Positions 20,149 to 21,203 of a stretch of 64,000 bases of DNA are shown piece by piece; positions within the stretch are counted from its first letter, which is position 1; each line of letters begins with the position of its first letter. The DNA comes from Anaeromyxobacteraceae bacterium. Its GTDB lineage: Bacteria; Myxococcota; Myxococcia; Myxococcales; Anaeromyxobacteraceae. Position numbers and translations under genes: made by a program. The stretch spans positions 1,952,001 to 2,016,000 of the forward strand of contig JASGHJ010000001.1 in assembly GCA_047602405.1 (NCBI GenBank), read 5' to 3'. The notes below the pieces were generated by a model, which did not search any database, had not been told where the DNA came from, and worked only from the letters and a program-made list of their open reading frames with translations.

Positions 20149-20307
20149 ATGGCGGAGCGCAAGGCCTTCCTGCTCCGGGTCGACCCCCGCCTCCTCGAGG
20201 CGCTCCAGCGGTGGGCGAACGACGATCTGCGATCGCTGAACGGGCAGATCGAGTTCCTGCTGAGAAGGGCGCTGAGAGAGGCGGGGAGAGAGGAGAAGAA
20301 GGATTAG
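20149..20307 (+). CDS. Arc-like ribbon-helix-helix protein (52 aa; not in the ORF track)
   Basis: [47 protein letters not shown]; usual partner of this SPFH subfamily. Confidence 0.85.
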
Positions 20308-20487
20308 GATCAGGATCGGGATCAGTAGCAGGATCAGGATCAGGAGCAGGAGCAGGAGCGGGAGCAGGATCAGCAGAAGCAAGAGGAGCAGCAGGAGCAG
20401 CAGGAGCAAGAGGAGCAGGGGCAGCAGGGGCAGCAGGAGCGGGCATCAGCGTCGGCGTCAGCAGCGGCGTGAGCAGCAGCGTCAGCG
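20301..20487. repeat. Left arm: degenerate GGA(G/T)CA hexamer and GGAGCAGCA repeats
   Basis: Twelve hexamer units at 20301-20372, then 9-mer variants. Confidence 0.9.
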
Positions 20488-20811
20488 TCAGCGCGTCATC
20501 GTCCAGAGCATCGCGCAGAGCTCGTCGCAGAGGCCGAGGGCTGCCTGCACCGAGTCGTGCTCGACGTGGCCCCAGGCGACGGCGACGCGCAGCGCGGTCC
20601 GGGCCTCTTCGGCGCTGCCGCTCGCGACCTTCCAGTGCTGGAGGCGGTCCTTGCCGGTCCGCTTCCGTCCTTCGCCCAGGTTGAGGGCGATGGACGTCGC
20701 TGCTCGGCGCAGCTGGTCGGCAAGGTCCGGGTCCCGGGAGGTCAACGAGGCAGCGTGCGGCCGAAGGGTCTCGATGAGCTGGACCGCCCTGTCGAGCGCG
20801 ACGAAGGTCAT
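20488..20811 (-). CDS. Four-helix-bundle protein (23S rRNA IVS-protein / Avd-like family)
   Basis: DQLRRAATSIALNLGEG...ASGSAEE signature, 107 aa. Confidence 0.88.
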   Translation of the reverse strand: MTFVALDRAVQLIETLRPHAASLTSRDPDLADQLRRAATSIALNLGEGRKRTGKDRLQHWKVASGSAEEARTALRVAVAWGHVEHDSVQAALGLCDELCAMLWTMTR

Positions 20812-20917
20812 GCCGCGTCTCGATTGCAGCCGCCGCGCCATGGCCAATCGCTTGATTTCCCGGATCTCGCCGGGCTGCCCCGGTCCGCGCATCGGCCGCA
20901 GGGTCCGCGTTTCGGCC

Positions 20918-21203
20918 TGCCGCTGCTCCTTCTGCTGCTCCTTCCGCTGATGCCCTGCTGATGCTTCGCTGCTCCTGCTCCTGCTCCTGCTCCTGCTCCT
21001 GCTCCTGCTCCTGCTCCTGCTCCTGCTCCTGCTCCTGCTCCTGCTCCTGCTCCTGCTCCTGCTCCTGCTCCTGCTCCTGATCCTGCTCCTGCTACTGATC
21101 CTGATCCGGTTCCTGCTCCCGCTGCAGCATCAGCAGCCATCAGCATCAGCATCAGCACCAGCCACCAGCTACCAGCCACCAGCCATCAGCATCAGCCATC
21201 AGC
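20918..21203. repeat. Right arm: (TGCTCC)18 plus variants, then CAGCAT/CAGCCAY 6-7-mer array
   Basis: Eighteen perfect TGCTCC units at 20970-21077; reverse complement of the left arm. Confidence 0.92.

Follow-up and report, generated by a model that had tools for sequence, protein, structure and literature searches.

How does a gene for a small four-helix-bundle protein come to lie between two arrays of short repeats that mirror each other, and is such a unit an RNA hairpin processed together with its gene, a mobile cassette, or a resident gene beside ordinary microsatellites? The locus that raises this question lies in a window of 64,000 nucleotides (C1:1952001-2016000, the whole stretch of DNA that was analyzed) from the 6.16-Mb genome, with 74% GC, of an Anaeromyxobacteraceae bacterium. 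A sequence-only reading of the window had described the unit as either a transposase-free insertion or an excisable fold-back RNA. The explanation that we prefer, and to which we give about even chances, is that of a non-autonomous, transposase-less cassette that is gained, swapped or lost at self-rewriting arrays and has no conserved RNA hairpin.

The four-helix-bundle gene and its surroundings

ORF and profile searches confirm that the 107-aa four-helix-bundle gene is situated between convergent RHH-like and pdxH genes, both of which are aimed at the cassette (Table 1). The GGA(G/T)CA-type array on its left and the (TGCTCC)18 array on its right, which begins at 20970, are likewise present as first described. 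The 3' end of the RHH gene is purine-rich and its TAG stop is continuous with the left arm, for which TRF calls two segments (20306-20440 and 20446-20493). The SPFH protein further upstream shows 99% amino acid identity to its counterpart in the nearest relative, G010. Open reading frames running through the arms (20808-21179 and 19949-20446) were dismissed as repeat translations, and the stop-start overlap at 20808 is not present in G010. Elsewhere in the window, at 5867-5933, a short array of the same word family stands beside a different repeat.

Table 1. Features of the locus (positions in the window)
Feature	Position	Strand	Remarks
SPFH/Band 7 host gene	19240..20142	+	PF01145, 93 bits; upstream of RHH gene
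Ribbon-helix-helix (RHH)-like host gene	20149..20307	+	PF07878/RHH_5-like, 24.8 bits, just below the Pfam cut-off of 26
Left arm	20306..20487	+	G-rich hexamers: GGATCA outer, GGAGCA inner, 9-mer variants; then TCAGCG-type units
Irregular 15-mer, left copy	20319..20333	+	Exact mirror of 21087-21101
Four-helix-bundle gene	20488..20811	-	PF05635/TIGR02436, 107 aa, Avd-like fold
Predicted sigma54 (-24/-12) promoter motif	20825..20840	-	Conserved in G010
Two 8-bp direct repeats, 20 bp apart	20882..20909	-	Kept in G010; candidate activator half-sites
Right arm	20923..21123	+	C-rich hexamer array; contains (TGCTCC)18 at 20970-21077
Irregular 15-mer, right mirror copy	21087..21101	+	
Outer right array	21125..21204	+	CAGCAT/CAGCCAT units; no left-side mirror
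pdxH, host gene	21221..21802	-	TIGR00558, 215 bits (cut-off 180); TAG stop towards cassette

In profile searches the protein matches TIGR02436 with 62 bits (cut-off 24) and PF05635 with 56.9 bits (cut-off 33.8). Its start was placed at the ATG at 20811 rather than at an alternative upstream ATG at 20892, which would give 134 aa, because most homologs are 106-110 aa long. Residues A37, S40, N44, E47 and G65 are invariant. The AlphaFold model is an antiparallel bundle of four helices (pLDDT 97.9). Its top Foldseek matches are Xcc0516 (2GSC; TM 0.83) and BT_0352 (2RLD; TM 0.86), followed by the Avd protein of the diversity-generating retroelements (DGRs; 4DWL; TM 0.83, E 0.016, 15% identity); at the sequence level 2GSC is matched with an E-value of 1.6e-4, and a search of the Atlas returned PF05635 clusters only. 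Although structures of PF05635 proteins have been solved since 2006, we know of no function assigned to the family. With a predicted pI of 7.9 the protein is near neutral, whereas its homologs have a median pI of 10.4 (54 of 58 above 9); this low basicity counts against a cassette whose protein binds nucleic acids.

The sigma54 consensus consists of elements at -24 and -12, the spacing of the latter indicating the transcription start. A GG-N10-GC motif of this type is located between gene and right arm and is also found in G010, where the leader around it has otherwise drifted. By the -12 rule the predicted start falls about 3 nt before the ATG, which would thus stand at +3/+4. The pattern has 100 sites genome-wide (about 8 per Mb), and among the loci collected it occurs near the gene start only in both alleles of this site and in one other cassette. 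The two 8-bp direct repeats, kept in G010 as well, are similar to tandem half-sites that the accessible text of PMC9765219 describes for a sigma54 activator of a myxobacterium, and are candidates for such a role here. No intrinsic terminator was predicted in 20100-21400, and a sigma70 promoter was likewise not found. A leader hairpin of the kind seen in the paired cassettes of this genome (see below) was ruled out (z -0.34 and -0.75). The sigma54-type motif predicts a transcript that lacks the right arm: were this promoter active, the mRNA would not contain that arm, and a stem between the arms would then need read-through from a host gene.

The inverted arms and their counterparts in G010 and in homologs

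The sequence-only reading took the arms for a coupled inverted repeat, able to fold into a long stem with the ORF in its loop. The arms themselves are real, and both mirror pairs that it had picked out, the 15-mer and an 11-mer (20441-20451 with 20945-20955), are exact reverse complements. In the entire genome the 15-mer is found in two places only, namely the two arms, and the 11-mer has 10 occurrences. The minus-strand RNA of the region folds with -567 kcal/mol and 162 arm-to-arm pairs (z -10.5; 0 of 20 shuffles equal). The 15-mer is paired in the folds of both strands and the 11-mer in that of the minus strand alone, while the pairing of the arms reaches 20292, inside the end of the RHH gene.

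Specific coupling of the irregularities in the two arms is nevertheless weak. Tested against 33 other arms of the genome, the left arm has its best partner in the right arm (0.446), with two gene-less arrays nearly equal (0.433 and 0.416); the right arm ranks the left one second, and it is with an unrelated array that the left arm shares its longest identical stretch (29 nt). Four 12-mers are private to the arm pair, all of them out of the 15-mer, and a Markov null trained on 18 other arms produces as many in 15% of runs (P 0.15). The best ungapped 60-mer agrees at 56 of 60 positions in the arm pair and at up to 55 with other arms. The energy of the arm duplex (-261 kcal/mol) is better than that of 200 unit-shuffled pairs (-211 +/- 10, best -243) and of the best of five non-cognate arms (-236), which favors some coupling and counts against the cassette explanation. 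Gene-less inverted arrays with the words of the window locus are found at C2:235940-236210, C2:1411500-1411790 and C2:2648955-2649185; in G010 they are present with rewritten words.

Among the 41 genomes searched the locus is present only in G010, where the site is filled. The arms of the G010 allele are shorter, use other words and have lost the mirror layout. Its fold has a z of -1.67 as against -10.5 in the window allele, its arm duplex reaches -72 as against -261 kcal/mol, and its arm-to-arm similarity is 0.00 as against 0.37; orthologous arms of the two alleles have a 12-mer similarity of 0.02. As fold, arm duplex and arm similarity all collapse, the long stem, though evident in the window allele, is not conserved. 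Its loss in the nearest relative implies that RNA-stem models for the family need to be checked against orthologs.

The protein is 73% identical to its G010 ortholog, with a dS of 0.89 and a dN/dS of 0.17, whereas the neighboring SPFH, RHH and pdxH genes have dS values of 0.11-0.30. Four-fold degenerate sites differ at 23 of 46 positions (0.50), compared with a median of 0.16 and a maximum of 0.33 in 36 host blocks. Judged by these values, the gene is under purifying selection and yet near synonymous saturation. The divergence between the two alleles fits an allele swap; as their proteins are sisters in a tree of 16 sequences (95/94), fast evolution in place may be an alternative.

The check proposed at the outset, a search for an empty RHH-pdxH junction in relatives, found no such junction: G010 is filled and no other searched genome has the gene order. 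A pdxH match was obtained in 14 of 61 family genomes, the RHH and SPFH genes occur within the fetched pdxH loci only in this genome and G010, and SPFH is found at E<=1e-40 in two of 37 genus genomes. A motif scan of metagenomes returned three loci: one has an arm like that of G010, and the other two are distant and have neither pdxH nor array. Among contigs of four DNA runs aligned to 19700-20960, one carries an allele resembling that of G010, and no joint spanning the cassette was seen. The absence of an empty allele of this site among the genomes searched counts against the cassette explanation.

To what extent inverted flanks characterize the family was surveyed in loci flanked on each side by 400 nt or more of sequence; three multi-copy genomes would have contributed 40 further copies, which were excluded. 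Among solitary genes, which comprise the window locus, one shared site in three copies and probably some pairs with a missed second gene, 54 of 70 have an array on at least one side. Of the 16 with both arrays, 11 are inverted, 3 direct and 2 otherwise arranged, and sharing amounts to 0.287 between cognate arms against 0.033 across loci. There are 26 gene pairs, and the 18 with both arrays comprise 11 direct and 7 other arrangements and not one inverted (examples of convergent pair cassettes are L048, L054, L057, L059, L061 and L077). Inverted flanks, whose consistency was one of the checks proposed, are thus typical of solitary genes; since pairs are never inverted, this layout is no rule of the family. 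At one host site four genus genomes (L042, L043, L045 and L062) each have one solitary family gene, and among 24 pairings of arms there the true one comes second to third. At L042 both arms use one and the same different word.

These data bear most directly on an RNA cassette akin to the intervening sequences (IVSs) of rRNA, in which read-through from pdxH would bring both arms into one transcript, the arms would form a stem cut by RNase III and the protein would bind the repeat RNA. The strong fold with its 162 pairs, the lack of a predicted terminator, the predominance of inversion in solitary genes and the arm ranking at the four-genome site are all in its favor. So is the precedent of an ORF-bearing 23S rRNA IVS of Coxiella, with complementary borders and cleavage by RNase III, as described in the accessible part of PMC4990558. 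We consider this explanation unlikely, because the G010 ortholog has no stem, the pairs have direct arms, the coupling of the arms is marginal and transcription from the internal promoter motif would leave out the right arm. Moreover, as the host genes are convergent, there is no operon in need of rescue. The stem lost in G010, the direct-armed pairs and the position of the motif between right arm and gene do not support a conserved fold-back RNA.

Family cassettes and hexamer arrays across the genome and genus

The family is represented in this genome by nine genes at five loci, the window gene being the single one and the others forming four convergent pairs with hairpin leaders. Arrays are found on both sides at all five loci, and thus around all nine genes; of 1500 stretches drawn at random from this genome, 23 have an array. 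For eight of the nine genes the distance to a detected array is at most 352 nt, whereas about 1.5% of the genome falls within 600 nt of such an array. In the pair cassettes the array words differ between the two arms. At C2:349227-349286 a hexamer array is joined to what remains of the 3' end of a family gene (E 1e-8); the G010 site corresponding to the region of this remnant (C2:349160-349286) is an array alone. The arms of the window locus are shown to belong to a genome-wide family of arrays, situated at present and former cassette sites.

With respect to the five cassette sites, G010 is filled at three (the window site, J and K), has a gene-less array at H and is cleanly empty at I, with neither cassette nor array. 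An empty allele is hence present in G010 at two of the four sister loci, and one cassette site of G010 is a short array alone in this genome. Comparison of the two genomes shows family cassettes to be present or absent at shared sites, which supports the earlier notion of a transposase-free insertion unit. Arrays of close relatives are similarly shown, on alignment, to keep their place and change their words: at 17 hand-chosen orthologous array sites the position is kept and few 12-mers are shared (mean 0.067). A genome-specific array dialect was not significant over these 17 sites (P 0.16-0.23), a failure that counts against the cassette explanation; the window site has its best array matches in its own genome despite this result. 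At C2:3563087-3563540 an array and a repeat element of about 330 bp are both absent from the G010 site, and sequence similar to the region of this element is found at C2:278020-279650.

Across 37 genus genomes the median number of array-pattern matches is 23 in the 24 that have the gene and 0 in the 13 that do not, in a count that includes the reversed-pattern control of the search, was chosen after seeing the data and treats non-independent kin. G001 has no family gene and yet 27 matches. Gene-less arrays are common in this genome, and arrays also occur beside other repeat elements and in frame within host genes, which argues against a strict link with the gene.

The ends of host genes next to arrays are themselves unusual. 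By crude gene calls, TAG is the stop codon of 15 of 24 genes that precede an array, compared with 37% of other genes (P 0.018), and the final codons of array-preceding genes are poor in C (P 0.001). Ten flanks picked by hand were compared between this genome and G010, post hoc and with no outgroup: over the last 100 nt the array-bearing allele, or the one whose array is longer, differs from its counterpart by 61 C>G versus 23 G>C and by 19 C>A versus 3 A>C, a signal that fades past 200 nt. An example of such a purine-rich halo is found at 20240-20307 of the window, and AGA/AGG arginine codons increase in host gene ends before arrays. These biases suggest that the process that rewrites the arrays extends into the ends of host genes.

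Under the cassette explanation, then, the unit would move by recombination at fast-rewriting arrays, and the window and G010 alleles would differ by a swap. The very long stem would result from the inward G-rich polarity of the family combined with a recent expansion of (TGCTCC)n, to which some copying from arm to arm has perhaps added. The gene would be transcribed from its own sigma54-type promoter into a nearly leaderless mRNA without the right arm. In what is the weakest step, the protein might form a pentamer that, like Avd, binds nucleic acids and promotes the persistence of the cassette encoding it. The absence of a mobilizing enzyme tied to the window copy counts against this scheme.

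A different causal order, in which the Avd-like protein together with a host reverse transcriptase (RT) or polymerase writes the tandem repeats at the cassette ends, which would make the arrays a product of the protein that spreads along with it, appears to us improbable. The fold resembles Avd, which binds a specific RNA and confers processivity on the DGR RT (accessible text of PMC6182149). Gene-bearing genomes are richer in arrays, array and cassette are absent together at one site, and the purine-rich halo precedes the arrays. The genome also has eight RT matches (C1:440169, 558383, 1301262 and 2073997; C2:769849, 1212645, 1714074 and 1788023). Seven of these score equally, and they probably represent a recently spread group II intron; the nearest is 101 kb from the locus, which leaves no RT within 100 kb. 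Neither a template RNA nor any meaningful Rfam match was seen, nor were template or variable repeats of the DGR type found in 19800-21700. The unlike words in the two arms of pair cassettes, the arrays beside other elements and the 27 matches of the gene-less G001 further speak against a writer. In its boldest form, which we likewise think improbable, an undescribed selfish system would be driven by the four-helix protein, which as an Avd-like pentamer would act together with an RT or repair polymerase of the host and write G-rich tandem repeats inward from the two ends of its insertion site; every such visit would leave behind an array, along with a purine-rich halo at the end of the adjoining host gene. 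To our knowledge, the long 6-7-mer intergenic repeats of bacteria have no accepted origin; if this form were true, those of many bacteria would be explained as the footprints of one protein family.

Very unlikely, in our estimate, is a resident host gene whose flanks independently gathered ordinary microsatellites, the mirror resulting from G-rich repeats after each convergent stop. The same site in both genomes, the purifying selection and the common gene-less arrays would agree with it, as would the approximately 70 inverted repeat pairs per Xanthomonas genome, in which ORF-downstream repeats lie close to the stop on the coding strand (accessible text of PMC4692102). It is contradicted by the contrast between five of five loci and 23 of 1500 random windows, by the presence or absence of family cassettes between genomes, by the saturated synonymous divergence and by the 13 of 37 genus genomes without the family.

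Passenger genes of IS5-family transposons and mobile cassettes devoid of a transposase are familiar concepts. G341, another Myxococcota genome with 27 family matches, has a near-identical array-gene-array unit inside TAG-bounded, IS5-type terminal repeats, either in a 485-bp transposase-less form or in a 1.39-kb form with a DUF4096 + DDE_Tnp_1 transposase (loci L261, L260, L266, L264 and L268); the same ends enclose a 177-bp gene-less element and have 63 matches. In G377 arrays of a multi-copy gene lie within TAG-bounded terminal repeats with G341-like ends at 13 of 14 loci (L250-L255, L272-L279), the left parts of the copies differing in length. Unique terminal inverted repeats with a target duplication are present in the copies of both genomes. 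That the window locus is a decayed passenger of this sort, its ends overwritten by arrays, is the least probable account even though both its arms start after a TAG: these TAGs are host stop codons, no unique terminal inverted repeat was found outside its arms, the inward-reading ends differ, and no IS5/IS427-type transposase was detected in this genome (tblastn with the G341 transposase) or within 21 loci tested.

Relation to known systems

The window locus and its G010 counterpart link PF05635 to array repeats, and they do so in genomes where filled, emptied, decayed and cleanly empty sites are found together. With these side by side, the question of how array and gene are connected becomes testable. 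The literature searched, which mostly did not cover subscription journals, contained no paper linking the PF05635/TIGR02436 family to repeat arrays outside rRNA; the accessible text of PMC4692102 has no match to 'helix' or 'S23', and that of a Beggiatoa repeat paper (PMC4679880) none to terms for the family.

The closest precedent in terms of the protein is the ORF-bearing 23S rRNA IVS (S23p) of Coxiella and Leptospira, which, according to the accessible part of PMC4990558, combines the same protein family with complementary flanks and a sporadic distribution. Unlike it, the window cassette lies between protein genes, with no 16S or 23S gene around it and no rRNA match in 19000-23000, and has microsatellite arms, a stem that is lost in the ortholog and a predicted promoter of its own. 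The four-helix fold is common to the S23/IVP structures Xcc0516 and BT_0352 and to the window protein. It is also alike in Avd of the DGRs (4DWL, 8UB7), in spite of the low sequence identity; Avd, however, is described as highly positively charged, and the window gene has no adjacent RT or template repeat. The IS5 passengers of G341 are comparable as array-gene-array units between IS ends, with or without a transposase, whereas the window copy has neither terminal repeats nor a matching transposase.

As to the arrays, the GGGAATC and STRR-type repeats of Xanthomonas and Nostoc are likewise intergenic, often in inverted pairs and near stops, and keep their place while varying in length and sequence (accessible text of PMC4692102). 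The window arrays differ from them, as described there, in being hexamers of several words tied to the gain and loss of a gene family. The REP/REPIN sequences with their RAYT genes offer a further parallel. There, too, a gene family is flanked by repeats that are also scattered gene-less over the genome. Six weak matches to Y1 transposases occur in this genome, two of them on this contig at 249 and 552 kb from the locus, and no repeat-flanked Y1 HUH transposase was found at the locus. In contrast to RAYT, the window gene encodes no HUH nuclease, and in place of fixed palindromes its repeats are tandem hexamers that change their words.
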